A stretch of DNA of 64,000 bases from NCBI GenBank assembly GCA_945860165.1, contig CAMAPL010000012.1, forward strand, positions 679-64,678, given 5' to 3'. The notes below the pieces were generated by a model. The model worked only from the letters and a program-made list of their open reading frames with translations, searched no databases and was not told the DNA's origin. The position numbers and the translations under genes were made by a program. The first letter of the stretch is position 1. Each line of letters starts with the position of its first letter. This stretch comes from Rhizobium sp. Q54. GTDB lineage: Bacteria > Pseudomonadota > Alphaproteobacteria > Micropepsales > Micropepsaceae. Below, piece after piece: positions 12,518 to 64,000 of the stretch.

Positions 12518-12605
12518 CTTGTCATTCCCGCGCAAGCGGGAATCTAGCTTCAAGCAATCACCGCTGAATGGAAATTTGGATTCCCACTTGCGCGGGAATG
12601 ACAAG
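12518..12605. repeat. Composite palindromic intergenic repeat, copy A (type 1 unit, spacer, inverted type 1 unit)
   Basis: TTGTCATTCCCGCGCAAGCGGGAATC (12519-12544) and GGATTCCCACTTGCGCGGGAATGACAAG (12578-12605) are inverted copies, and each is itself a hairpin. The element lies between two convergent stop codons. Confidence 0.85.
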
Positions 12606-15348: not shown

Positions 15349-16682
15349 GTCTGATCCTGTACATCGTCTTTACGGATGTCGTTCTTGTAGGTCTCCGGGC
15401 CGCACCACACCGCAAAGGCGGTGACAAATGAGATCGCCACGACATAAATGCACACGCCCCAGGGCGCGCCCGCCATCCAGGCGACCAACGTGGCGGCGAT
15501 CAACGGCGCCGGCCCGCCGGCGATGATCGAGCCCAACTCGCGGGCGAAGGCGAAACCCGAATAGCGCAGTCGCGGCCCGAACAGTTCGGCGAAATAGACC
15601 GCCTGCGGCCCAAACATGGCGCCGCTGCCGATGCCCATCTCGATGATGAAGGCCAGCGCGATCAACGTCGGGTCCTTGGTGCCCACCATCAGGAAGAAGG
15701 GCACGGCACAGGCCGCCGAGAACAGCGCCCCGAAGATATAGACCGGGCGGCGGCCAATGCGGTCCGACAGCCAGGCGAAGAAGAACAAGCCGCAGGCCAG
15801 AGCGATGTTGCCGCAGATGACGCCGAACACCGCGACATTGCGCGGTACGTCCAGCGTGGTGATCAGGTAGGACAGGCCGAAAACCGGATAGAGATAACCG
15901 AGCGCATTCTCGGCAAGTCGTGCGCCGACCACGACCAAGAAATTGCGTGGGCTGCGCCGGATCGCCTCCAGCGCCGGAATCTTCAGCGGCGGGCGCTTGG
16001 CGGCGGCTTCCAGGAATACCGGCGTCTCCGTCACCTTGGCGCGGATATAGACACCCAGTCCCAGCAGCAATACCGAACCCAGGAACGGCACACGCCAGCC
16101 CCAACTCATCAGGTCGTCGGCAGCCAGCATCCCGGTCGCCCAGAAGGTCGCACCGGCCAGCGCGTTGCCAACCGTGACGCCGAAGGGCGCAAAGGCGCCG
16201 TACACGCCGCGCTTGCCTTCAGGCGCGAACTCCACCGCCATCACCACCGCGCCACCATACTCCGCCCCGGCGCCGAAGCCCTGGCACAGGCGCAGGGTCA
16301 AAAGCAGGATCGGCGCCCAGATGCCGATCTGGGCATAGGTCGGCAGCAATCCGATCAAAAAGGTGCTGCCGCCCACCAGCAGCAGGGTCGCCACCAGCAT
16401 GGGCTTGCGGCCCCACTTGTCGCCGAAATGGCCGAAGAACAGCCCGCCGAAGGGCCGCGCCAGAAAGCCCATCGCGAAGGTGGTGAAGGAGGCCATCACG
16501 CCGATGGCGGGATCATAGGCGGGAAAGAAAAGCGGCCCGAACACCAGCGCCGAGGCCATGCCGTAGATGAAATAGTCGTACCATTCCAGCGCCGAACCGA
16601 TGCCCGCGGCGAGCATCACATGGCGCAAGCGCGTGGGAGAAGTCGGCGATGGGGCACTGGCATCCGTCACACTGTTCCCCAT
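15345..16682 (-). CDS. MFS transporter, metabolite:H+ symporter (MHS) family
   Basis: 445 aa. SALEWYDYFIYGMASALVFGPLFFP and GHFGDKWGRKP motifs are typical of the KgtP/ProP/ShiA-type MHS family. Confidence 0.85.
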   Translation of the reverse strand: MGNSVTDASAPSPTSPTRLRHVMLAAGIGSALEWYDYFIYGMASALVFGPLFFPAYDPAIGVMASFTTFAMGFLARPFGGLFFGHFGDKWGRKPMLVATLLLVGGSTFLIGLLPTYAQIGIWAPILLLTLRLCQGFGAGAEYGGAVVMAVEFAPEGKRGVYGAFAPFGVTVGNALAGATFWATGMLAADDLMSWGWRVPFLGSVLLLGLGVYIRAKVTETPVFLEAAAKRPPLKIPALEAIRRSPRNFLVVVGARLAENALGYLYPVFGLSYLITTLDVPRNVAVFGVICGNIALACGLFFFAWLSDRIGRRPVYIFGALFSAACAVPFFLMVGTKDPTLIALAFIIEMGIGSGAMFGPQAVYFAELFGPRLRYSGFAFARELGSIIAGGPAPLIAATLVAWMAGAPWGVCIYVVAISFVTAFAVWCGPETYKNDIRKDDVQDQT

Positions 16683-29049: not shown

Positions 29050-29155
29050 GGGTCATCCCCGGCAAGCATCGCGGAAGCGATGCGAGGGAAGGGGATCCAG
29101 GTTATGGACAAAGCTCGTTTTAAAGGTGGATTCCCGCTTGCGCGGGAATGACAGG
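29050..29155. repeat. Composite palindromic repeat, copy C (type 2 unit, spacer, inverted type 1 unit)
   Basis: GGTCATCCCCGGCAAGCATCGCGGAAGCGATGCGAGGGAAGGGGATCCAGG (29051-29101) and GGATTCCCGCTTGCGCGGGAATGACAGG (29128-29155), directly after the fumC stop. Confidence 0.8.
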
Positions 29156-35934: not shown

Positions 35935-36021
35935 TTTTCATGCCCGCGAAAGCGGGCATCCAAGGACTTTTCCGGCTTGCGGACGCTCGCCTGCTGGATT
36001 CCCGCTTTCGCGGGAATGGCA

Positions 36022-53508: not shown

Positions 53509-54867
53509 ATGCTCATGCCTGAGAAAATCAGCGGCGCCCCACGCGTCACGGACATGAAAGTCATTCCCGTCGCCGGACAGGACAGCATGTTGCTGAACCT
53601 GTCGGGGGCGCACGCGCCCTTCTTCACCCGCAATCTGGTGATCCTGACCGACAGCGCCGGCAATACCGGCGTGGGCGAAGTGCCGGGCGGCGAGAAAATC
53701 CGCCAAACGCTGGAGGACGCCCGCGACCTGGTGGTAGGCAAGAGCCTAGGCGAGTGGAACAGTGTTTTGCTGGAAGTCGGCAGCCGTTTCGGCGACCGCG
53801 ACGCCGGCGGCCGCGGACTTCAGACCTTCGACCTGCGTATCACGGTGCATTGCCAAACAGCGCTGGAATGCGCCCTGCTCGACCTGCTGGGCCAGCATCT
53901 GGAAGTGCCGGTCTGCGCCCTGTTGGGTGAAGGCCAGCAGCGCGGCGCGGTGGAGATGCTGGGCTATCTTTTCTTTATCGGCGACCGCAAGAAGACCACC
54001 CTGCCCTACCGTAACAATCACTCTTCCAATCGAAGTGGGGGCGACGACTGGATTCGCCTGCGCGACGAAGAAGCCCTGACGCCCCAGAGCGTGGTACGGC
54101 TGGCGGAAGCCGCCTACGAGCGCTATGGCTTCAATGACTTCAAGCTCAAGGGCGGCGTGTTGCCGGGCGAGCAGGAAATGGAAGCCGCCGCCGCACTGGC
54201 CCAACGTTTTCCCCAGGCACGCATCACCCTGGACCCCAACGGCGCCTGGTCGCTGAAGGAGGCGGTGGCGCTGTGCAAGGGCAAGGGCCATATCCTGGCC
54301 TATGCCGAGGACCCGTGCGGCGCGGAAGACGGTTTTTCGGGCCGCGAGATCATGGCGGAATTCCGCCGCGCCACAGGGCTTCCCACCGCCACCAACATGA
54401 TCGCCACCGACTGGCGGCAGATGGTGCACGCCCTGGAGCTGGGATCGGTGGACATCCCGCTTGCCGATCCGCATTTCTGGACCATGCGCGGATCGGTGCG
54501 GGTGGCGCAGGTCTGCGCCGATCGCGGCCTGCGCTGGGGCAGCCATTCCAACAATCACTTCGACGTCTCGCTGGCGATGTTCACCCATGTCGCCGCCGCA
54601 GCGCCGGGCAACATCACCGCCATCGACACCCACTGGATCTGGCAGGACGGCCAGCGCCTGACCAAGGAACCCTTCCCCATCGTCAAAGGCCTGGTGCCGG
54701 TGCCCAAGCAGGGCGGGTTGGGCGTCGAGATCGATATGGTGGAAGTCGAGAAGGCGCACAATGTCTACAAATCACTGGGCGACGGGGCGCGCGACGACGC
54801 CATCGGCATGCAGTTCCTGATCCCGGGCTGGAAATTCGATCCCAAAAAGCCGTGTCTGGTGCGCTGA
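53509..54867 (+). CDS. gudD: Glucarate dehydratase
   Basis: [59 protein letters not shown] is almost collinear with E. coli GudD as I recall it. Confidence 0.92.
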
Positions 54868-54886
54868 CGGGCGCTATAGTCCAGTT

Positions 54887-56434
54887 ATGAACGTCCAGTC
54901 CAAGGCCCCGCACGAGCCGCCGCGCCGCATCCAGGTGGCACCGGGCGATAACGTCGCGATTATCGTCAACAGTCTGGGCCTGCCCGCCGGAACTGAATTT
55001 TCCGACGGCCTGGTGCTGAACCATTTCGTGCCGCAGGGCCACAAGGTGGCGCTGGCCGACATCGCTGATGGCCGCGACATCATCCGCTATAATGAAGTGA
55101 TCGGTACCGCCAAAGGCGATATCCGGCGCGGCGACTGGATCAATGAAGACAATGTGGTGATGGGCACCGCCCCGCCGCTGGACCAGCTGGAAATGGCGAC
55201 CCGTCCGCCGCCCAAGCCCGAGCCGCTGACCGGTTATACCTTCGAAGGCTATCGCAATGCAGACGGCACGGTGGGGACCAAGAATATCCTGGCCGTGTCC
55301 ACCAGCGTGCAGTGCGTCTCCGGCACCATGGAATTCGCGCTTCAGCGCATCAAAGCGGAGCTGCTGCCGAAATATCTCAATGTGGATGATGTGGTGGTGC
55401 TGACCCATGCCTATGGCTGCGGCGTGGCGATCAATGCGCCGCAGGCCATCGTGCCGATCCGCACTTTGCAGAACCTGGCGCAGAATCCCAATTTCGGCGG
55501 CGAAGTGCTGGTGGTGGGCCTGGGCTGCGAAAAGCTGGTGCCCGAACGGCTGCTGCCGGCGGGCCAGGAAAACAACAACACACTGCGGATGCAGGATGAA
55601 GCCTTTGTCGGCTTTGGGGCGATGATCGATGGCATTATGTCGATGGTTGAAGACCGGCTGAAGATCCTCAACAAGCGCCAGCGCGAGACGGTGCCGGCGG
55701 CGGAACTGATCGTGGGCATGCAGTGCGGCGGCAGCGATGCCTTTTCCGGCCTGACCGCCAATCCGGCGCTGGGCTTCTGCGCTGATCTTCTGGTGCGGGC
55801 CGGCGCCACCGTGATGTTCTCGGAAGTGACTGAGGTGCGCGATGCCATCCACCTTCTGACTCCCCGCGCCGCCACCAAAGAGGTGGCCGACGCCTTGGTC
55901 CGCGAAATGAAATGGTACGATTCCTATCTCGAGCAGGGCGGCGTGGATCGCGGCGCCAACACCACCCCCGGCAACAAGAAGGGTGGCCTGTCAAACGTCA
56001 TCGAAAAATCCCTGGGCTCGGTCGCCAAATCCGGCACCAGCGCCATCAATGCCGTGCTGGCGCCAGGTGAGAAGGTACGCCAGCGCGGACTGGTGTTTGC
56101 CGCCACCCCGGCCAGCGATTTCGTCTGTGGCACCTTGCAGATGGCGTCGGGCATGAACCTGCACGTCTTCACCACCGGGCGCGGCACACCCTATGGCCTC
56201 GCCGCCGTGCCGGTGATCAAGGTCGCCACCCGCACCGAGCTGGCCAAGCGCTGGAACGACCTGATCGACCTAGACGCCGGGCCCATCGCCACAGGCGAAA
56301 AAACCATCGAACAGGTGGGCTGGGAATTGTTTCAGCTGATGCTGGACGTGGCCAGTGGCCGCAAGAAAGTGTGGGCCGACCATTGGGGCCTGCACAACGA
56401 TTTGACGCTGTTCAACCCCGCGCCGGTTACCTGA
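54887..56434 (+). CDS. garD: Galactarate dehydratase (UxaA/GarD family)
   Basis: 515 aa. It has an SAF-like N-domain ([13 protein letters not shown]...HKVALADI) and a UxaA-type C-terminal domain (...GCEKL...GGSDAFSG...TGRGTPYG). Confidence 0.88.
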
Positions 56435-56436
56435 TG

Positions 56437-56524
56437 TTTGTCATACCCACAAAAGCGGGTATCCAACTTCTTTAAGCGGACCGTTTGTTGAAAATTGGAT
56501 TCCCGCATGCGCGAGAATGACAAG
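56437..56524. repeat. Composite palindromic repeat, copy E
   Basis: TTTGTCATACCCACAAAAGCGGGTATCC (56437-56464) and GGATTCCCGCATGCGCGAGAATGACAAG (56497-56524), between convergent stops. Confidence 0.8.
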
Positions 56525-56529
56525 AAATC

Positions 56530-58143
56530 TTAGCGTCCGTCCTCCAACACCATCGCCGCCCCCTTGTCAGCGATCATGATGGTGGGCGTGTTGGTATTGC
56601 CAGAGGTGATGGTCGGCATCACCGAAGCGTCGATTACCCGCAAATTCTGAAGTCCGTGCACCCGCAACCGTTCATCCACCACGGCACGTGGATCGCTGGC
56701 CAGTCCCATTTTCGCGGTGCCGACCGGATGGAAAATAGTGGTTCCGATATCGCCCGCCGCATAGATCAACGCGTTGTCGCTATCATCCACATCGGGACCA
56801 GGGCGGAATTCCTCGGGCCGATACTGCGCCAGTGCGGGCTGGCGCATCAGCCGCCGCGTCAGGCGAATGCAGTCGGCGGCGATCCGGCGATCCTCGTCGG
56901 TGGACAGATAATTGGGCGCGATTTCGGGGCGCGCATCCATCGCGGCGGAGTTGATCCGCACCGTGCCGCGCGAGGTGGGGCGCAGGTTGCAGGGGCTGAC
57001 GGTGATGGCCGGGAAGCGGTGCAGCGGCGTGCCGAAACGGTCCAGCGACAAGGGCTGGATGTGGTATTGGACGTTGGCGCGTTCTTGTGACGGATCGGAG
57101 CGGGTGATCATGCACAGTTGTGATGCCGCCATAGTCATCGGTCCGCGCCGCGCAAGCGCATATTGAAGCCCCATCCACGGACGGCCCAGCAATGAGTAAT
57201 AGATTTCGTTGAGGGTTTTTACGCCCTTCACATGATACATGGCGCGCAGTTGTAGATGGTCCTGCAGGTTCTGACCTACGCCTTCCAGCGCGCGCAGCAC
57301 CGGGATGCCCGCTTGGCTCAGCCATGCGCCCGGACCGACACCGGAGCGCTGCAAGATTTGCACAGAACCGATGGCGCCCGACGACAACAGGACTTCACCG
57401 CTGGTCCGCGCCTCGAACAGCTGATTGCCCTGGCGGTAGCGCACGCCAGTAGCGCGCTTGCCGTCAAAGAGAACCCTCTCCACCTGCACGTCGGTCACCA
57501 GCCGCAGGTTGGGACGGTACAACACCGGCTTCAGGAAACCGCGCGCCGCCGACCAGCGCCGCCCGCGCTTCTGGTTGACGTGGAAATAATAGCTGCCTTC
57601 ATTGTCGCCCGTATTTGGGTCCGCGCTTTTCGGGATACCAATCTCTTCGCCGGCATCCACTATGCGGTCCAGTATCTCCCAACGCACCCGCGGTTCTTCC
57701 ACCGAAAGTTCGCCGTCGGCGCGATGGTGCTCGGTGTCACCCAGGAAATGCCGGTCCAGTTTCTTGAACAACGGCGCCACGTCATTCCAGCCCCAACCGG
57801 TCAGGCCAAGCTGGCGCCAATGGTCATAGTCGCCCGCTTGCCCTCGCATGGAGAGCATGGCATTGATGCTGGAGGAGCCGCCTATGGCCTTGCCACGCGG
57901 ATAGTTGAGCTTGCGGCCGTTCAGGCCGGGTTCTGCCACCGTCTCGAACATCCAGTCACTGCGCGGATTTCCGATCAGATAGAGATAGCCGATCGGGATG
58001 TGAAACCAGATCCAGTCGTCATGCCCGCCCGCCTCCAGCAGCAAAACGCGCTTGCTGGGATCAGCGGACAGGCGGTTGGCCAGCACGCAGCCCGCCGAGC
58101 CCGCACCCACCACGATGTAATCGTAATCGCCCTCAAGCATCAT
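56530..58143 (-). CDS. GMC-family FAD oxidoreductase (choline/alcohol dehydrogenase-like), no signal peptide
   Basis: MMLEGDYDYIVVGAGSAGCVLANRLSADPSKRVLLLEAGG is a GMC signature. The C-terminal ...FHPVGTAKMG...VIDASVMP... is also present. Confidence 0.88.
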   Translation of the reverse strand: MMLEGDYDYIVVGAGSAGCVLANRLSADPSKRVLLLEAGGHDDWIWFHIPIGYLYLIGNPRSDWMFETVAEPGLNGRKLNYPRGKAIGGSSSINAMLSMRGQAGDYDHWRQLGLTGWGWNDVAPLFKKLDRHFLGDTEHHRADGELSVEEPRVRWEILDRIVDAGEEIGIPKSADPNTGDNEGSYYFHVNQKRGRRWSAARGFLKPVLYRPNLRLVTDVQVERVLFDGKRATGVRYRQGNQLFEARTSGEVLLSSGAIGSVQILQRSGVGPGAWLSQAGIPVLRALEGVGQNLQDHLQLRAMYHVKGVKTLNEIYYSLLGRPWMGLQYALARRGPMTMAASQLCMITRSDPSQERANVQYHIQPLSLDRFGTPLHRFPAITVSPCNLRPTSRGTVRINSAAMDARPEIAPNYLSTDEDRRIAADCIRLTRRLMRQPALAQYRPEEFRPGPDVDDSDNALIYAAGDIGTTIFHPVGTAKMGLASDPRAVVDERLRVHGLQNLRVIDASVMPTITSGNTNTPTIMIADKGAAMVLEDGR

Positions 58144-58379
58144 CAGTCCAGATAGAATACTTCCTGCCTCATGGGGAAGCGCTCGCCGGGTTTGCGCTCA
58201 GCCATGGGCGCGAAAAACGGCGCCATCGCCTCCTGCCAGCGGGCATTGACCGGGCTTTTCTCGATTTCGCCCCACGTCTTTTCGAAATCGACGCAGGTGA
58301 AAGATTGGGCCTGTGCAATTTCGGGCAAAGCCGCGCCGATCAGGGCAGCGGCTTTCAGCAGGTCGCGCTTGGAGAGCAT
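58143..58379 (-). CDS. 78-aa protein: Tat-like (KR) leader plus a segment resembling the C-terminal half of the rhamnose mutarotase (DUF718) fold
   Basis: MLSKRDLLKAAALIGAALPEIAQAQS is a leader-like N-terminus. ...ARWQEAMAPFF...RQEVFYLD resembles the RhaM C-terminus. Its stop overlaps the GMC start (TGATG). The SD is weak, so coding status is uncertain. Confidence 0.45.
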   Translation of the reverse strand: MLSKRDLLKAAALIGAALPEIAQAQSFTCVDFEKTWGEIEKSPVNARWQEAMAPFFAPMAERKPGERFPMRQEVFYLD

Positions 58380-58387
58380 GACCGCCC

Positions 58388-59707
58388 CTAGCGCGCCGTC
58401 ACGCCCAGAGCGGGATCGGGACGCGGGAAGATGGTCCAGCGCGAATCCTGCCGGACGTCGCCCGGCGGCGCGGTCCATGCCAGCGCCGAAAGTCCGTTCA
58501 GATCATAGACGATCTTGCCGTCCTTCAAGGTCAGTTCCGCCACCAGCTTTTGCGATCCGTCCACTCTTGTATTGCCCATGTCGGTATAGCCGAACTTGCC
58601 CTTCTGCACGCTGATGACCGCGATATCGGCCACCGAGCCGGGCGACAGGTTGCCCAGGTCCTCGCGCTTGATCTGGCGCGCGGGATGGGCGGTCATGTCG
58701 GCAATCACTTCGGGCAGCGGCAGGCCCAGCGCCATCATCTTGCTGGCGACATTCAGAATGTCCTTGGTGGCGCTGTTCATGCTGCCGGTATGCAGATCGG
58801 TGGACAGCGAATCCGGCTTGAAGCCCTGCTTGATAATCGGCGCCGCCAGCATGAATTTGAAACTGCCGCCGCCGGTGCCGGTGTCGAAATAGATGCCGCG
58901 AGCGCGCCCTTCGACAAAGGCCTTGCTGGGCCCCTGGGTCGCCGGGTCCTGCTCCTGGCGTAGGCCGGAGAACATGTGGGTGTAGATGTCGCCAGGACGC
59001 AGCTTCTTGGTCAGCAGATCATAGAGCGGACGGGCGGGCTGGTCGGTGCCGAAATCCACCATCACGGGAAGCTTGGCGCGATTGCCGGCGATCACCGCCT
59101 CGTCGATCGGCTTCCATTCGGGCCCACCAAAGTGGGCGGACTTCACGCCGACAATCACGTTCGGATAGCGCTGCGCCATTTTTGCGGTCGCCTCGCCGTC
59201 CATATCGGCCATGTCCTGTTCCCATTTGCCGCCGCGCATGCCGTGACCCACGATATTGAGCATGGCCAGAACGCGGGTCCTGGAACGGTCGATGATGCGG
59301 TCCTTGAAATCCTCGAAATTGCGCCAGCCGGCGCACCCGGCATCGATCACCGTGGTAACGCCGCTGCGGAAGGTGAAGCCATCCGGCGGCACGCTGAGAT
59401 CGCCGGCATAGGAGCCCTTCTCGCCGGTGCCGTTATAGACATGGACATGCAAATCAATCAGCCCGGGCGAAACCACCATGCCGCGCACATCGATGGTCTT
59501 GATCGCATCGCCGGCGAACAGGCCCGGCGCCACGCGGGCGATCTTGCCGTCCTTGATGGCGACGTCCATCACCCCGTCGATGCTGTTCCTAGCGTCGATG
59601 ACGCGCCCGCCGCGCAGCAGCAGGTCGTAGCTGGGAAGCGGCCGGGCGGCCGAGGCTCCCGCGATCAGCAGCGCCACCGCGGCGCAAGCAAGAAACTTGT
59701 TCTTCAT
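58388..59707 (-). CDS. Exported amidohydrolase/deacetylase-family metallohydrolase (dihydroorotase-like)
   Basis: I take the start at MKNKFLACAAVALLIAGASAA (a Sec leader). LLLRGGRVIDA...DVAIKDGKIARV...SPGLIDLHVHVY is the amidohydrolase HxH region. An ATGA overlap links it to the upstream gene. Confidence 0.8.
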   Translation of the reverse strand: MKNKFLACAAVALLIAGASAARPLPSYDLLLRGGRVIDARNSIDGVMDVAIKDGKIARVAPGLFAGDAIKTIDVRGMVVSPGLIDLHVHVYNGTGEKGSYAGDLSVPPDGFTFRSGVTTVIDAGCAGWRNFEDFKDRIIDRSRTRVLAMLNIVGHGMRGGKWEQDMADMDGEATAKMAQRYPNVIVGVKSAHFGGPEWKPIDEAVIAGNRAKLPVMVDFGTDQPARPLYDLLTKKLRPGDIYTHMFSGLRQEQDPATQGPSKAFVEGRARGIYFDTGTGGGSFKFMLAAPIIKQGFKPDSLSTDLHTGSMNSATKDILNVASKMMALGLPLPEVIADMTAHPARQIKREDLGNLSPGSVADIAVISVQKGKFGYTDMGNTRVDGSQKLVAELTLKDGKIVYDLNGLSALAWTAPPGDVRQDSRWTIFPRPDPALGVTAR

Positions 59708-61302
59708 ATGCGCACTGCCGTCCATGGAACCACCCCGTATTCGCCCAGATCCACCGTGCCCACCATAGTGTTACCATTAGCGGTCCCCTTGAAGCGCCAG
59801 TCGATACCGCTCAATCCGCCGGTCGCCCGGCCGCTGCTGCCTGACACCGGCATGTAGCTGCGCATTTCGATCGTGTTGGCGCGTACCATGCCCGTCAACG
59901 TACCCTGGTAGATTTCGCCCTTTTGCATACCAGTCAATTCACCGCCCGACTGCTGCAGGGTGAACTGATGCTCGCCCTGGCCGCGCACATATTTGATCGT
60001 CACGGCCCAGTTGCCGGCCAGCGAAGCCAGCAGTCCTTTGGAGACTGGCGGATTAGAGTAAGTGCCTGGATTGCTGAGTGCCGCATGAAGCTCATCCGCC
60101 ACGATCCGCTCCTCGCCTGGGTCCATCATATAGGGCATGATAGTGATATAACTAGCCATCGGATTCGGACGGGTACCGGTGCCGCCTTGTACCATAATGC
60201 GCGGCGTTCCCGCATCCAGCTTCGCCACCAGTTCGGTACCGGTGATGCCCAGCGCCTCAGCATCCCAGTGAATGCGCAAGCGCGTGGACTTGTTGGAAAG
60301 ATCCTCGGGCTGAAGATATTCAAACCGGGTTGATTCCAGCGACTTCAGCCGCGCCTCGATATGCTCCAGCCACTGGCGCCACATACGCTGCTCGCCGTCA
60401 TGATCGCGCTGATACCATTGGCGAACCGCCGCCAGCAGGCCCATGGATTCTTCTTTGGAGCATTTCAGCGGCCGGCCATAATTATGGTGCGGCGAGGCGT
60501 TGAAATAGGCTGCCTTGCACAGATCCTTCGGCCCCAGCAGCATGCCGGAAGATTGCGGACCCCGCATGCACTTGCCGCCGGAATAACCCACCATAGTCGC
60601 GCCCGCAGCCAGGTGGATGTTGGGCTTGACCGGCTCTTCCGCTGCCGCGTCTACGAAGGTCGGAATATTTTTCTCTTTGGCGATTTCGCAGATGGCCTTT
60701 ATTGGTAGCACGCTCTTAGCCTCTTCCGGCGAAGACAAGATGTAGATCATCGCGGTGCGTGGGTTGATAGCGCGGTGTAGGTCTTCGGCTGTCTGGACCT
60801 CGACCACCTCAGCGCCCACCATGCGCACCCCGATGTCATACTGGTTGCGCGAGTGCCATGGGATGATCACCTGGTCCTTGGCCTTGATGTGCGGCAAGGC
60901 TTGGGCCTTTTCGACATCAGTGCCGACCATGCAGGCCACAGTCGCCTGCACGATTGCCGCCGCACAGCCATTGGTGGTGATACCCCAGGGCGCGTTGGTC
61001 AGCTTCGCAAGCTCAGCGCCGATGCCGTCCATAAGCTCATCGAGATGGACGTGATAGTGAGAGGCTTCGAACATCGCCTGCTTGACCTCAGGCAGCGAGC
61101 GCGAGCCGGAGATGATGGTATAGGTGCCGCGCGCGTTCAAAATCGGGCGCACACCGATACGGGTATAAAGATTGTCACGTTCGTTTACGGCATGGGCAGG
61201 CAGCCCTTGCGCCGCTGCCGGTGCCGGTGCCGCTACCAGCACCACGGGCGCAACCGCGCCGGAACTTTTGAGAATGTCACGCCGCGACCACTTGCCAAAC
61301 AT
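59704..61302 (-). CDS. Tat-signal PLP-dependent enzyme of the SelA/DgaE-like fold-type I family with an extra C-terminal domain
   Basis: I take the start at MFGKWSRRDILKSSGAVAPVVLVAAPAPAAAQG, preceded by SD AAGGAG. ...GVRPILNARGTYTIISGS...WGITTNGCAAAI...SGGKCMRGPQSSG... (a candidate PLP-lysine region) fits SelA-like enzymes as I recall them. About 110 aa of extra beta-rich sequence sits at the C-terminus. Confidence 0.72.
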   Translation of the reverse strand: MFGKWSRRDILKSSGAVAPVVLVAAPAPAAAQGLPAHAVNERDNLYTRIGVRPILNARGTYTIISGSRSLPEVKQAMFEASHYHVHLDELMDGIGAELAKLTNAPWGITTNGCAAAIVQATVACMVGTDVEKAQALPHIKAKDQVIIPWHSRNQYDIGVRMVGAEVVEVQTAEDLHRAINPRTAMIYILSSPEEAKSVLPIKAICEIAKEKNIPTFVDAAAEEPVKPNIHLAAGATMVGYSGGKCMRGPQSSGMLLGPKDLCKAAYFNASPHHNYGRPLKCSKEESMGLLAAVRQWYQRDHDGEQRMWRQWLEHIEARLKSLESTRFEYLQPEDLSNKSTRLRIHWDAEALGITGTELVAKLDAGTPRIMVQGGTGTRPNPMASYITIMPYMMDPGEERIVADELHAALSNPGTYSNPPVSKGLLASLAGNWAVTIKYVRGQGEHQFTLQQSGGELTGMQKGEIYQGTLTGMVRANTIEMRSYMPVSGSSGRATGGLSGIDWRFKGTANGNTMVGTVDLGEYGVVPWTAVRI

Positions 61303-61315
61303 GCTTTTGCTCCTT

Positions 61316-61795
61316 TTAGATGTAGGCGATGACGTCAATTTCAACCAGGGAATTGCCGGGGATGCCGCTGGCTGGCGCCACCGTGCTGCGTACCGGCGGG
61401 ACTGGACCCCAGTCATAAGAGCGGTAGACCGCATTCATCGCATTATAATCGCCTAGGTCGTTCAAAAAGACGCTGACCTTGAGGCACTTCTGCAGCGAGG
61501 AGCCAGCGTCAATGAGATTCTTGGAAATCTCGTCCAGCACCGTCTTGGTATGTTCTTCGATGGTGCCGAAATAATGCGCCCCAACGCCCGACAGGAAGAG
61601 CATGTTGCCGTAGGCGACGGCGCGCGAATACATCGGCCGGGCGACCGGCGGATTGGGCGCCGGATAGGGCGAGCGCTTTTCCAGTTTCGGCTGCGCCTGG
61701 GCCTCGTTGCCCTTGCCCAGCATCGCCGCGCCCGTGGCGGCAACCGCGGCGACCGCGCCTTTGGTTAAGAGGCCGCGCCTTGATTTTTTTTCCAT
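61316..61795 (-). CDS. RidA/YjgF-family protein with Tat signal
   Basis: MEKKSRRGLLTKGAVAAVAATGAAMLG... is a 35-aa twin-arginine extension. The RidA core follows (YSRAVAYGNMLFLSGV...KVSVFLNDLGDYNAMNAVY...PVRSTV...LVEIDVIAY). Confidence 0.84.
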   Translation of the reverse strand: MEKKSRRGLLTKGAVAAVAATGAAMLGKGNEAQAQPKLEKRSPYPAPNPPVARPMYSRAVAYGNMLFLSGVGAHYFGTIEEHTKTVLDEISKNLIDAGSSLQKCLKVSVFLNDLGDYNAMNAVYRSYDWGPVPPVRSTVAPASGIPGNSLVEIDVIAYI

Positions 61796-61924
61796 GTAAC
61801 ATGCCCGACTATGCTTTAGGCCAATGTCCCCCGGCCATAGCGGCAGGCTATCACAAAATCCGGGACCTCCAAGGCCGCCGGTCTTGCTGCGGGGCGTTCA
61901 AATCCGTCGGTGCAACCGTGGCGC

Positions 61925-63073
61925 CTAGTCCGCGGGCGCAACATCGTCGGTCATGGTCGACATCGCAATGCCGCGTTTGCGCTTCTTCAGCCACATGATG
62001 GTGCCGGTGATGACGAACAGCAGCGGCACCAGGCCCGACAGGAAGACCAGGAATTCCCAGATCGGGCCCAGATTGCCCTGGCCGTCATGCATCGGACGCT
62101 GCAGCGCCATGAAGCTGTCGCCGCCGCCATTGTTGGCCACGTCGCGCACAGCGATTACCGCGCCGGTGTTGGGATGGATAGAGACTGTGGCGGTGGTGCC
62201 GAAGCGCGAGGCGACCGCGGCGGTCAGCGGCTCGTCGGCCTTGGCCGGCATGGTGACGCTGCGCAACGCCCTGCCCGGCATCGCCTTTTTTGCGATCAGC
62301 ACCGCATGATCGGGGCCCAGGCGCCTGGCCCCCGCCACCAGTTGGACCACGGGCACGGGCGCGGGCGTACTGGCCGAGACGATGGCACGCATTGTCTGGG
62401 GGAAGGTGATGGCGACGCCCGAAAAGCTCACCGCCATGAAACCCACGAACATCCAGATGCCGGCGGCGGCGTGCAACTCGCGGTGGAAGCGCAGGCCGGT
62501 GGCAGTGCGGCGCACCAGGAAGGCATACTTCCATTGGCCGCGCTTGGGCCACCACAACACGATGCCCGTCAGGCCGAGCAACACCATGCCGACGCCCAGC
62601 CAGCCCACCACGGGGTGGCCGAACTCGCGGCCCAGCTGCAAGCTGCCGTGAAACTGATGCAGCCAGTGAAAGACCGGCAACCGGCCGTCACGGCGCACGT
62701 CCAGCGTCACGCCAGAAGCCGGATCGACATAGAGCTGAAGGTTCACCGGCGCTTCCAGTGAAGCAGGAACCTTGCGATGCTTGCCGCTCAGACGCACCAA
62801 AACCGTCTCGCCAGGTTCAGCTGGTGGCAGGAACTGGATCTGGCCGCCCTCTTCGGCTTGCACCACGCGGCGCGCATACTCCCCGATGATGGTCAGTGGC
62901 ACGGGTGGCCCCGCCGTGACCGCCTTGGGGGGCGGCGCGATCCAATCGGTTAGCTTGTCGTCATAAACCAGGATACTGCCCGACAGGCTGACCGCGACGA
63001 ACAGCACGCCCAAGACAAGCCCGACCCACAAATGAATCTGAAACAGGGCACTGCGGAAGGTAGCGAACTTCAT
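61925..63073 (-). CDS. PepSY-domain/PepSY-associated TM-helix membrane protein (PiuB-like)
   Basis: MKFATFRSALFQIHLWVGLVLGVLFVAVSLSGSILVYDD... and the C-terminal ...HDGQGNLGPIWEFLVFLSGLVPLLFVITGTIMW are typical of the family. Confidence 0.8.
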   Translation of the reverse strand: MKFATFRSALFQIHLWVGLVLGVLFVAVSLSGSILVYDDKLTDWIAPPPKAVTAGPPVPLTIIGEYARRVVQAEEGGQIQFLPPAEPGETVLVRLSGKHRKVPASLEAPVNLQLYVDPASGVTLDVRRDGRLPVFHWLHQFHGSLQLGREFGHPVVGWLGVGMVLLGLTGIVLWWPKRGQWKYAFLVRRTATGLRFHRELHAAAGIWMFVGFMAVSFSGVAITFPQTMRAIVSASTPAPVPVVQLVAGARRLGPDHAVLIAKKAMPGRALRSVTMPAKADEPLTAAVASRFGTTATVSIHPNTGAVIAVRDVANNGGGDSFMALQRPMHDGQGNLGPIWEFLVFLSGLVPLLFVITGTIMWLKKRKRGIAMSTMTDDVAPAD

Positions 63074-63248: not shown

Positions 63249-64000
63249 TTACAGCCGAAAGCTCACCAGCTGGCCTGGCATGCCGCCGGACACCGCGACG
63301 GCGATATATTGCGTGCCGTTGACGGCATAGGTCATGGGCGAGCCGGTGACCCTGGTGGGAAGCGGCACCGCACCCACTTCCTTGCCGGTCGCCTTGTCAT
63401 AGGCGCGCAGCCACCCACTCAGTTTTCCATCCGGTCCGGTGGTGGCGGTGCCGTCGCCGGCAATAATCAGGTTTTTTGTCACCAGCACGCCGACTTTTCC
63501 CTTCGAGCCGGTGCGAGGAATGGTCATGCCTTTCAGCGCGGGATTGTTGCGCACTTCATCCGGGGTTTCGCCATGCGGCACCTGCCAGATGATCTCGCCC
63601 TTGTTGAGGTCGATTGCCGTGATCTGGCCGTAAGGCGGCTTCATCAGTGGCATGCCCTGCACCGTCGTCCGGACGATGCCCGGGCGGGGCGTCTCGCCCG
63701 CGACTGCAGGCGGCGAGGCCACGCCCAGCATCCAGCCGACATCGGTGACGGCGGGATTGGCCGGGATGTGGCCGGTGGGACTGTAGGAAAGGTTCGAGAA
63801 TATGTAGAAAATGTTGGTGTCGGGATCGAAGGCGCCGCCCGGCCACTGCGCCGCGCCATCGCCATTGGGATTCATGATGGTGGCCAGCGGACGCGGCCAT
63901 TTGCTGGCGGATGGTGGCGTGAACAGGGGCCCGATGCGGTAATTGAAAACCAGCTGCTCGGCCTCGGCGCGCAAGGCGGGCGTGAAATCAATCAGATCTT
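63249..64000 (-). CDS. PQQ-dependent dehydrogenase (quinoprotein), C-terminal part; 5' end lies beyond the window
   Basis: The frame stays open to the window edge (..DLIDFTPALRAEAEQLV...). ...AQWPGGAFDP..., ...ITAIDLNKGEIIWQVPHG... and ...GWLRAYDKATGKEVGAVPLP...SPMTYAVNGTQYIAVAVSG are beta-propeller W-motif blades. Confidence 0.8.
   Translation of the reverse strand, partial: DLIDFTPALRAEAEQLVFNYRIGPLFTPPSASKWPRPLATIMNPNGDGAAQWPGGAFDPDTNIFYIFSNLSYSPTGHIPANPAVTDVGWMLGVASPPAVAGETPRPGIVRTTVQGMPLMKPPYGQITAIDLNKGEIIWQVPHGETPDEVRNNPALKGMTIPRTGSKGKVGVLVTKNLIIAGDGTATTGPDGKLSGWLRAYDKATGKEVGAVPLPTRVTGSPMTYAVNGTQYIAVAVSGGMPGQLVSFRL

Follow-up and report, generated by a model that had tools for sequence, protein, structure and literature searches.

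A conserved and probably exported RidA, PLP enzyme and amidohydrolase trio beside a deletion scar in a Micropepsales genome

Five consecutive open reading frames (ORFs) lie on the minus strand of a 64,000-nucleotide stretch of DNA from Rhizobium sp. Q54 (GTDB Micropepsales, Micropepsaceae; assembly GCA_945860165.1, contig CAMAPL010000012.1, positions 679 to 64,678), which we call the window and within which all positions below are given. In gene order they encode a RidA-family protein, a pyridoxal phosphate (PLP) enzyme, an amidohydrolase, a product of 78 amino acids (aa) and an oxidoreductase of the GMC family that binds flavin adenine dinucleotide (FAD). An earlier note, made from the sequence alone, had taken the five as one operon for a periplasmic pathway. 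The ORFs, their junctions, the twin-arginine translocation (Tat) and general secretory (Sec) leaders, the 129-nt upstream region and the bounding element at 56437-56524 are all where that note had placed them. As to origin, we think it probable that the region is made of two different parts: an exported, translationally coupled three-enzyme module (RidA, PLP enzyme and amidohydrolase, hereafter the trio) and a deletion scar that carries an orphaned gene. The features are as follows.

61796-61924, minus strand: upstream intergenic region of 129 nt, from the stop codon of a PepSY_TM gene (TAG, 61925-61927) to the RidA start
61316-61795, minus strand: RidA, 159 aa, start MEKKSRRGLLTKGAV, with an N-terminal Tat-type leader
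61303-61315, minus strand: spacer of 13 nt (AAGGAGCAAAAGC) between the RidA and PLP genes, bearing the Shine-Dalgarno sequence of the PLP gene
59704-61302, minus strand: PLP enzyme, 532 aa, start MFGKWSRRDILK, with a Tat leader, a DgaE/SelA-related domain and a β-barrel
59704-60051, minus strand: extra C-terminal domain of the PLP enzyme, residues ~418-532, an 8-stranded up-and-down β-barrel
58388-59707, minus strand: amidohydrolase, 439 aa, COG3964-type, with a Sec-type leader
58143-58379, minus strand: 78-aa ORF, a chimera at the deletion scar
56530-58143, minus strand: GMC-family FAD oxidoreductase, 537 aa, leaderless
56437-56524, no strand assigned: palindrome resembling repetitive extragenic palindromic (REP) elements or miniature inverted-repeat transposable elements (MITEs), an inverted repeat with 32-nt arms between the convergent GMC and galactarate dehydratase genes

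The PLP stop and the amidohydrolase start overlap as ATGA, a gap of 8 nt (GGGCGGTC) separates the amidohydrolase from the 78-aa ORF, and the 78-aa ORF meets the GMC gene in a TGATG overlap. The longest possible frame for the PLP enzyme runs 44 codons farther upstream; the MFGKW start follows AAGGAG and is the one used in all homologues. The 129-nt intergenic region is presumed to hold the promoter and 5' untranslated region of the trio. A scan of 56300-62100 for the sigma-70 consensus returned no promoter sites, and the two terminator-like sites in that interval are weak and both on the opposite strand.

What kinds of enzymes make up the trio? RidA matches PF01042 over residues 50-159 (65.4 bits; cut-off 27.3) and has equivalents of Arg105, Tyr17 and Glu120 of Escherichia coli RidA (PVRSTV aligned with PARSCV). 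The catalytic part of the PLP enzyme occupies residues ~44-412, with the PLP (Schiff-base) lysine, K244, in the motif YSGGKC. Models of the DgaE family are its best matches by far (1e-44, versus 1e-6 to 1e-8 for others), and there are weak matches to Cys/Met-metabolism and class-V aminotransferase families. It scores 150.7 bits against TIGR01437 over residues 46-371 (cut-off 385.3) and 127.4 bits against NF047797 (cut-off 600), so that, by NCBI criteria, it is a relative of the DgaE family and not a member. Its closest solved and characterized relative is DgaE itself, D-glucosaminate-6-phosphate ammonia-lyase (PDB 7LC0, E=9e-28): the match spans residues 44-367, aligns K244 with the lysine of YSGAK and conserves VDAAAEE. 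The amidohydrolase exceeds the cut-off of NF006689, the COG3964 model (404.7 versus 371 bits), and aligns with PDB 2OGJ over ~360 residues (E=6e-43) through the motifs DLHVHxY, GVTTxxDAG, TH and STDLH; the metal-site motifs HxH, TH and STDLH are present.

A search with the PLP enzyme yielded more than 2500 homologues. The best 120 of these share >57% identity with it, are ~525 aa long and nearly all open with a W-S-R-R-x-L-L-K leader; across 42 homologues K244 does not vary. When 1.84 billion representatives were searched exhaustively with the PLP enzyme, 574 clusters emerged at E<=1e-30. Because these clusters take four forms (Tat leader with barrel, Tat leader without barrel, leaderless with barrel and plain DgaE-like), exported DgaE-like enzymes appear to be a broad, unstudied group. 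The extra C-terminal domain of ~110 aa recognized in the earlier note is real and folds, in the AlphaFold2 (AF2) domain model, into a confident 8-stranded β-barrel (pLDDT 88) whose strands recur in the full-length model. It has no Pfam family match, and Foldseek returned weak generic matches to calycin, fatty-acid-binding protein (FABP), avidin and Cap15-like folds, as well as a weak match to a domain of the quinohemoprotein amine dehydrogenase α subunit (best E overall 6.6e-4). A 9-aa insertion in a barrel loop (GRATGGLSG, 59806-59832) is lineage-specific—absent from all aligned homologues—and modeled with low confidence. Among the hits P0138-P0193, many leaderless DgaE-like proteins (~480-510 aa, presumably cytoplasmic) also bear the barrel, so the domain is not export-specific.

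Are these three proteins exported? The RidA leader, MEKKSRRGLLTKGAVAAVAATGAAMLGKGNEAQA, would be cleaved before QP, with the mature domain beginning at ~residue 49, and its motif in the window is SRRGLLT...AQA. That of the PLP enzyme occupies residues 1 to ~33 and contains WSRRDILK (SRRDILK...AAAQG in the window). Both show the layout of Tat signals ahead of the folded domain: S/T-R-R-x-F/L-L-K comes first, then a mildly hydrophobic stretch rich in Ala and Gly, and then an AxA site. At E<=0.01 neither RidA nor the PLP enzyme was matched by the Pfam TAT_signal model. The leader of the amidohydrolase, MKNKFLACAAVALLIAGASA, is of the Sec type and is followed by ARP; an alternative ATG at 59725 likewise yields a signal peptide. 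Family models start downstream of all three stretches (RidA, residue 49-50; PLP enzyme, 44-46; amidohydrolase, 26), and the leaders are thus extra to the known cytoplasmic domains. AF2 models residues 1-40 of the PLP enzyme as disordered.

The leaders were compared across 80 species-level genome loci from Micropepsales/Rhizomicrobium-type Alphaproteobacteria and from Acidobacteriaceae (denominators below are the loci where the contig allows the comparison). RidA orthologues almost all open with M-E-x-Q-S-R-R-G-L-L-K, and both the SRRGLLK of RidA and the WSRRxLLK of the PLP enzyme are kept across two phyla (Alphaproteobacteria and Acidobacteria); the earlier note had asked for such a comparison, and the conservation extends to the level of amino acids. 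In amidohydrolase orthologues the leader is of the classical Sec type and ends in AxA, and those of loci L016, L028 and L071 have an RR-F-F-L-G Tat-type leader in its place. Because the orthologues swap a Sec-type for an RR-type leader, it is apparently export itself that is under selection. The export leaders that had been proposed for RidA, the PLP enzyme and the amidohydrolase are therefore supported by conserved motifs that lie outside the family models. We infer strongly, from these sequence features, that the three proteins are exported, and the trio probably works in the periplasm.

How far does the gene arrangement itself extend? In 70 of 76 loci the gene next upstream of the PLP gene is that of RidA, and in 57 of 75 the next one downstream is that of the amidohydrolase, which 10 more loci have elsewhere in the locus. 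The Acidobacteriaceae that carry the trio include cultured Granulicella, Edaphobacter, Terriglobus, Bryocella, Tunturibacter and Acidicapsa. Conservation of the full five-gene block, as the earlier note had envisaged it, holds only in part: RidA, PLP enzyme and amidohydrolase are conserved together, and the arrangement of all five is seen in 0 of 80 loci. The five genes are not a conserved unit, and their arrangement is limited to the window's own lineage.

Neighborhoods differ between the two groups. Acidobacterial trio loci contain a Y_Y_Y/Reg_prop sensor kinase with a LuxR-type regulator, and a CarboxypepD_reg TonB-type outer-membrane barrel. Directly upstream of RidA, most of these loci have two genes (e.g., L005 5227-7438 and L039 7172-9403). 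One is for a signal-bearing RraA-like protein, of a family that includes 4-hydroxy-2-oxoacid aldolases; the other is for a second DgaE-like paralogue of ~435 aa, which is without the β-barrel and has a Tat leader of its own (TRRxFLxWSQ). Many of these loci also have a leaderless BBE-type FAD oxidase, which almost always adjoins a Tat-bearing (NRRxFL) 7-bladed lactonase, as at the following positions.

L005 11085-13868, and L039 13174-17019, with many further Acidobacterial loci: BBE oxidase and lactonase pair

The pair could represent co-export (hitchhiking) or a split cytoplasmic/periplasmic route. The neighboring lactonase is of the 6-phosphogluconolactonase β-propeller type, and a module for acyl-homoserine-lactone degradation was rejected on that ground. 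The trio of Micropepsales is coupled to a GH29 fucosidase gene and has L-rhamnose genes beside it, a context that hints at glycans containing 6-deoxy sugars. A link between the Micropepsales trio and the upstream TonB receptor, PKHD hydroxylase and PepSY_TM genes was also considered and rejected, as these form an iron-uptake-type set that is absent from Acidobacteria.

What, then, are the 78-aa ORF and the gene behind it? Relatives L001 and L010 have the order RidA, PLP enzyme, amidohydrolase, GH29 fucosidase, opposite-strand SDR, enolase-superfamily dehydratase, RhaT, RhaM and GMC. In DNA alignments of the breakpoint against L010, L001, L007 and L013, window 58700-58296 corresponds to the stretch in which the amidohydrolase gene ends and the fucosidase gene begins, and window 58301-57900 to the tail of rhaM and the start of the GMC gene; the crossover lies in a shared TTCACC microhomology at 58296-58301, and ~4.87 kb is missing relative to L010. 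At the protein level, residues 1-28 of the ORF (58296-58379) are the signal peptide of the GH29 α-L-fucosidase, and the rest, residues 29-78 (58146-58295), is L-rhamnose mutarotase in its C-terminal half: the L001 fucosidase opens with MLSKRDLLKATALIGAGLPEIAQAQSFT followed by DITPG, the L001 RhaM ends with ...LTFT followed by CDDFEKTWSEIEKSPVNARWQQAMAPFFAPMEGRKPGERFPMWQEVFYLD, and the window ORF reads MLSKRDLLKAAALIGAALPEIAQAQSFT followed by CVDFEKTW...FYLD. What had looked like a Tat-like mini-protein of 78 aa is a chimera, left by a deletion, in which a fucosidase leader runs into half of rhaM.

A ~4.9-kb deletion between the TTCACC repeats took out the GH29 fucosidase, the L-rhamnose 1-dehydrogenase Lra1, L-rhamnonate dehydratase, RhaT and rhaM in its 5' half. 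The tail of rhaM came to follow the fucosidase leader in the same reading frame, and a cytoplasmic GMC oxidoreductase now stood behind the trio. Three of the lost genes were named by NCBIfam equivalogs (score/cut-off: Lra1, 447.8/400; L-rhamnonate dehydratase, 764/393; RhaT, 530.6/468). The exact 78-aa ORF is indexed in 122 blocks of a public assembly collection, and the six loci displayed, which come from separate samples and include GCA_947505975.1, have the same arrangement as the window. Because this arrangement recurs in metagenome assemblies from separate samples, the deletion is real and fixed in the window lineage, and not an assembly artefact. The Pfam rhaM match (PF05336) in the ORF covers profile positions 57-105 of 105 only; of a complete RhaM domain (PF05336/TIGR02625, ~104 aa), the last 49 profile positions are left. 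In this remnant the conserved W of FPMWQEVF has become R, and non-synonymous to synonymous changes number 6-8 to 9, versus 23-36 to 85-114 in the GMC gene. The higher non-synonymous share suggests relaxed constraint, on numbers that are too small for a claim.

Both junctions of the scar are old. The TGATG overlap is the ancestral junction of rhaM and GMC (in L001 the end of rhaM and the start of GMC lie at 16045), and the 8-nt gap sits at the ancestral junction of amidohydrolase and fucosidase. It is because both were inherited that the scar locus resembles a neatly coupled operon. The single translationally coupled unit of five genes proposed earlier drew in part on these two junctions, which did not evolve for the present arrangement.

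The GMC protein is indeed the leaderless flavoprotein that had been described. It matches PF00732 (164 bits) and PF05199 (128 bits), with the Pfam match starting at residue 7 (family models start at residue 5-8) and the FAD-binding GxGxxG motif, DYIVVGAGSAGC, at residue 8; against the choline dehydrogenase (BetA) equivalog it scores 455.8, below the cut-off of 732.1. All 22 of the 22 orthologues checked are leaderless. The gene originally closed an operon of rhamnonate dehydratase, RhaT, RhaM and GMC. Its place in an exported pathway is contradicted by the leaderless orthologues and by this origin as the last gene of a rhamnose operon. GMC genes occur near the trio in the alphaproteobacterial group only and are absent from the Acidobacterial trio loci; in L027, L041 and L051 a hairpin plus T-run follows the amidohydrolase, and 100-280 nt of non-coding DNA then precede GMC. 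The interval between trio and GMC in Micropepsales (L007, L013, L027, L028, L031, L041 and L051) holds the fucosidase plus the rhamnose set, rhamnose genes only, the dehydratase only, or nothing. Because gene content downstream of the trio varies so widely, repeated independent losses between amidohydrolase and GMC are indicated. After GMC, L001 and L010 have convergent galactarate and glucarate dehydratase genes, as does the window. In the window these two genes (53509-56434, plus strand) both score above NCBIfam equivalog cut-offs and converge on GMC, a synteny that is kept across Micropepsales.

How does the trio compare with known systems? In the dga operon, DgaE is linked to a phosphotransferase system (PTS) and to the DgaF aldolase. 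DgaE of Salmonella (PDB 7LC0/7LCE; NF047797, TIGR01437) is the best match of the window PLP enzyme among solved structures and families. The window enzyme differs from it in having a Tat leader, an extra β-barrel of ~115 aa and linkage to RidA and an amidohydrolase. The DgaE family is defined by a cytoplasmic enzyme acting on a phosphorylated, PTS-derived substrate, and the window protein departs from this definition in its Tat leader and in its surroundings: no PTS or kinase genes were found among the annotated neighbors in example loci. As for the third enzyme, the TIGRFAM notes on EF_0837 reportedly describe a COG3964-type amidohydrolase paired with a SelA-related PLP enzyme in Firmicutes and Gammaproteobacteria. 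The solved COG3964 amidohydrolases (NF006689/PRK09237; PDB 2OGJ, and 2ICS for EF_0837) are without signal peptides, whereas the window protein and its orthologues carry leaders.

The nearest parallel in reaction logic is the cytoplasmic ong cluster of Pseudoalteromonas prydzensis, in which the deacetylase OngB, the PLP deaminase OngC, which yields 2-keto-3-deoxygluconate (KDG), and the RidA protein OngD, essential in vivo, act on N-acetyl-D-glucosaminate (GlcNAc1A) from chitin oxidized by lytic polysaccharide monooxygenases (LPMOs) (Jiang et al. 2022, PMC9537276). Like the window trio, this cluster combines an amidohydrolase-superfamily deacetylase, a PLP deaminating enzyme that leads to a 2-keto-3-deoxy acid and a RidA-family protein, and it is associated with TonB-dependent outer-membrane uptake and a periplasmic glycosidase (PMC9537276). 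OngB, OngC and OngD are, however, predicted to be cytoplasmic and are without leaders; OngB is of the D-aminoacylase family and OngC of the D-amino-acid deaminase family, in contrast to the COG3964 and DgaE/SelA-like fold type I proteins of the window; and the window has no kinase or SSS transporter. The Ong enzymes are thus, going by the family names used in PMC9537276, presumably analogous and not orthologous to the trio.

A Rid-family protein outside the cytoplasm has a precedent in Chlamydomonas reinhardtii, whose periplasmic L-amino-acid oxidase has a RidA-like subunit, Mβ, as summarized in PMC5053998. As in the trio, the protein stands beside an imine-generating enzyme in a system that obtains ammonium from extracellular amino compounds. 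The Chlamydomonas system differs in being eukaryotic, in forming its imine with a flavin oxidase and not a PLP lyase, and in being without a Tat leader or a deacylase. We found no description of the exported trio in the searchable literature, in which DgaE and glucosaminate are mentioned only incidentally, and no paper describing PLP enzymes as Tat cargo. The statement in the earlier note that no characterized system has this composition therefore stands for the exported trio, and has to be qualified for the cytoplasmic ong logic (PMC9537276) and for the extracytoplasmic RidA-like subunit reported for Chlamydomonas (PMC5053998). Already known, then, are the protein superfamilies, the reaction logic (ong and dga) and an extracytoplasmic RidA-like subunit; what seems to be new is the compartment and the packaging—a conserved Tat/Tat/Sec trio whose PLP enzyme has acquired a place for a novel barrel domain. 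The comparison makes the trio most likely an exported, non-orthologous counterpart of the cytoplasmic OngB/OngC/OngD and DgaE pathways.

What reaction might such a module carry out? After export, the amidohydrolase would strip the N-acyl group from an N-acylated β-hydroxy-α-amino acid, the PLP enzyme would then catalyse an α,β-elimination to an enamine/imine, as in DgaE, and RidA would hydrolyse the imine to a 2-keto-3-deoxy acid and ammonium. Acetate (or another acid), ammonium and a keto acid would be released outside the cytoplasm, possibly for the scavenging of nitrogen and carbon. As a substrate class we favor, with modest confidence that stays short of even, an N-acetyl-2-amino-2-deoxy-aldonate, which would arise by oxidation of an amino sugar at C1; a phosphorylated substrate would be unlikely outside the cytoplasm. 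The predicted functions of the Acidobacterial partners fit a series from amino sugar to lactone, N-acyl-amino-aldonate, amino-aldonate, keto-deoxy acid and, finally, pyruvate plus an aldehyde.

Several observations weigh against this proposal. The reaction type of the PLP enzyme is extrapolated from ~30% identity, at scores far below the DgaE cut-offs. RidA scores 65.9 bits against TIGR00004, below its cut-off of 106.25, and is of a divergent Rid subfamily outside the archetypal RidA subfamily. The only COG3964 enzymes with measured activity reportedly hydrolyse esters of the acetyl-(R)-mandelate type. The leaderless BBE oxidase fits poorly with a fully periplasmic oxidative route, and the fucosidase and rhamnose neighbors in Micropepsales indicate 6-deoxy-sugar glycans, not chitin. 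Two more distant Tat-bearing paralogues, P0123 and P0129, lie on short contigs of 3-4.5 kb, one with an adjacent amidohydrolase and the other without either partner.

Other explanations differ from the proposed amino-aldonate route in substrate, chemistry or compartment. The main alternative, which we regard as appreciably less probable than that route though far from negligible, is that the exported trio acts on N-acyl-D-amino acids—e.g., N-acyl-D-serine or N-acyl-D-threonine from peptidoglycan, lipopeptides or humic material—to give pyruvate or 2-oxobutyrate and ammonium in the periplasm. The PLP chemistry would be that of serine/threonine dehydratases, of which RidA is the established partner. 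The amidohydrolase family is related to D-aminoacylases and dihydroorotases, OngB is phylogenetically nearer to N-acetyl-D-glutamate deacetylases (PMC9537276), and the Chlamydomonas oxidase with its RidA-like subunit scavenges ammonium from amino acids (PMC5053998). Set against these points are the specificity of the closest characterized PLP relative for a sugar acid and the carbohydrate-type neighbors of the trio (GH29 fucosidase, lactonase, BBE oxidase, RraA-like protein, TonB-type barrel and Y_Y_Y sensor). It is also conceivable, if rather doubtful, that the PLP enzyme is an aminotransferase, epimerase or C-S lyase and that RidA plays another role, such as quenching imines from a neighboring flavin oxidase. 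The sub-cut-off DgaE scores, the weak Cys/Met-metabolism and class-V aminotransferase matches, the adjacency of two divergent PLP paralogues in Acidobacteria and the frequency of FAD oxidases (BBE and GMC) as neighbors would all be accommodated by such a role; the DgaE models nonetheless remain by far the best matches (1e-44 against 1e-6 to 1e-8), and the immediate upstream neighbor of the PLP gene is RidA in 70 of 76 loci, with the oxidases variable.

The two remaining explanations concern export, and both strike us as very improbable. One would have the N-terminal extensions uncleaved, as membrane anchors or mis-called starts, and the enzymes cytoplasmic like DgaE, which would agree with the silence of the TAT_signal model on RidA and the PLP enzyme; this is countered by the conservation across phyla of leaders with a typical layout (RR motif, mildly hydrophobic Ala/Gly stretch and AxA sites), by the Sec/RR leader swap of the amidohydrolase, which is expected only if export is under selection, and by the lack of PTS or kinase genes for a phospho-sugar route among the annotated neighbors in the example loci. 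The other is that all five genes are one evolved periplasmic pathway, in which the 78-aa Tat-like protein escorts GMC by hitchhiking and GMC performs a final oxidation. The tight packing of the ORFs, with overlaps, speaks for it, and so does the pairing of known GMC dehydrogenases with a small Tat-bearing subunit: in the gluconate 2-dehydrogenase type (PF13618 with PF00732/PF05199) a small ORF with a Tat-like leader overlaps a leaderless GMC gene, superficially the layout of the window, and a genuine Gluconate_2-dh3 and GMC pair lies within a few kb of the trio in Edaphobacter aggregans (L039 18335-20644). The 78-aa ORF, however, has Pfam matches to the rhaM fragment and, below threshold, to TAT_signal, and none to PF13618 (Gluconate_2-dh3); because it is without that similarity, its likeness and that of GMC to such pairs is coincidental. 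It is a chimera of fucosidase leader and half rhaM with KR, not RR, in its leader; its arrangement with GMC occurs in the window lineage only, GMC originally following cytoplasmic rhaM and RhaT genes; and GMC is cut off from the trio in some relatives by the hairpin and non-coding gap or, at the Acidobacterial loci, missing.

Two further elements of the window lie outside this argument. The palindrome at 56437-56524 is predicted to fold, as RNA, into a hairpin of -36 kcal/mol (z=-3.85) and is probably where the unit has its 3' boundary or terminator. Its family, with arms TGTCATTCCCGCGCAAGCGGGAATCC, has seven arm copies at four window sites, versus 0.06 expected by chance.

12520-12603: repeat family site
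29128-29153: repeat family site
35936-36021: repeat family site
56439-56522: repeat family site

Upstream of PepSY_TM, on the same strand, the window lineage has a gene for a pyrroloquinoline quinone (PQQ)-dependent dehydrogenase (63249-64000, minus strand), which runs off the window; the protein is 650 aa in L087, and the position of the gene differs in L001 and L003.

What would these findings mean for the organisms that carry the trio? For annotation they hold a warning: an in-frame deletion can yield a neat coupled "operon" together with a plausible small signal-peptide "gene." For physiology, our tentative proposal, which we put at somewhat less than even, is that a PLP-dependent elimination of the amino-acid type takes place outside the cytoplasm in bacteria of two or more phyla (Acidobacteriota, and Alphaproteobacteria of the Micropepsales type). 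It would use a Tat-exported DgaE-like ammonia-lyase, a Tat-exported RidA and an exported deacylase, to which Acidobacteria would add a signal-bearing RraA-like protein, a TonB-type importer and a further PLP paralogue. No periplasmic RidA system would have been described in bacteria before, and the periplasmic route by which it mineralizes N-acyl amino-aldonates (oxidized amino sugars) to keto acids, acetate and ammonium would be new as well. The accepted role of RidA is to protect the cytoplasm from enamine/imine damage caused by PLP enzymes; if the proposal is true, a Tat-exported RidA with a PLP lyase would present the same problem and the same solution in the bacterial periplasm, and PLP enzymes would join the proteins that Tat carries with their cofactors loaded. 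Acidobacteriaceae of soil and peat commonly have the trio, as do Micropepsales of freshwater and soil (at least 80 species), in loci that resemble polysaccharide-utilisation loci. Because it is so widespread and in such surroundings, its substrate is likely to be an abundant, overlooked nitrogen-containing carbohydrate derivative.

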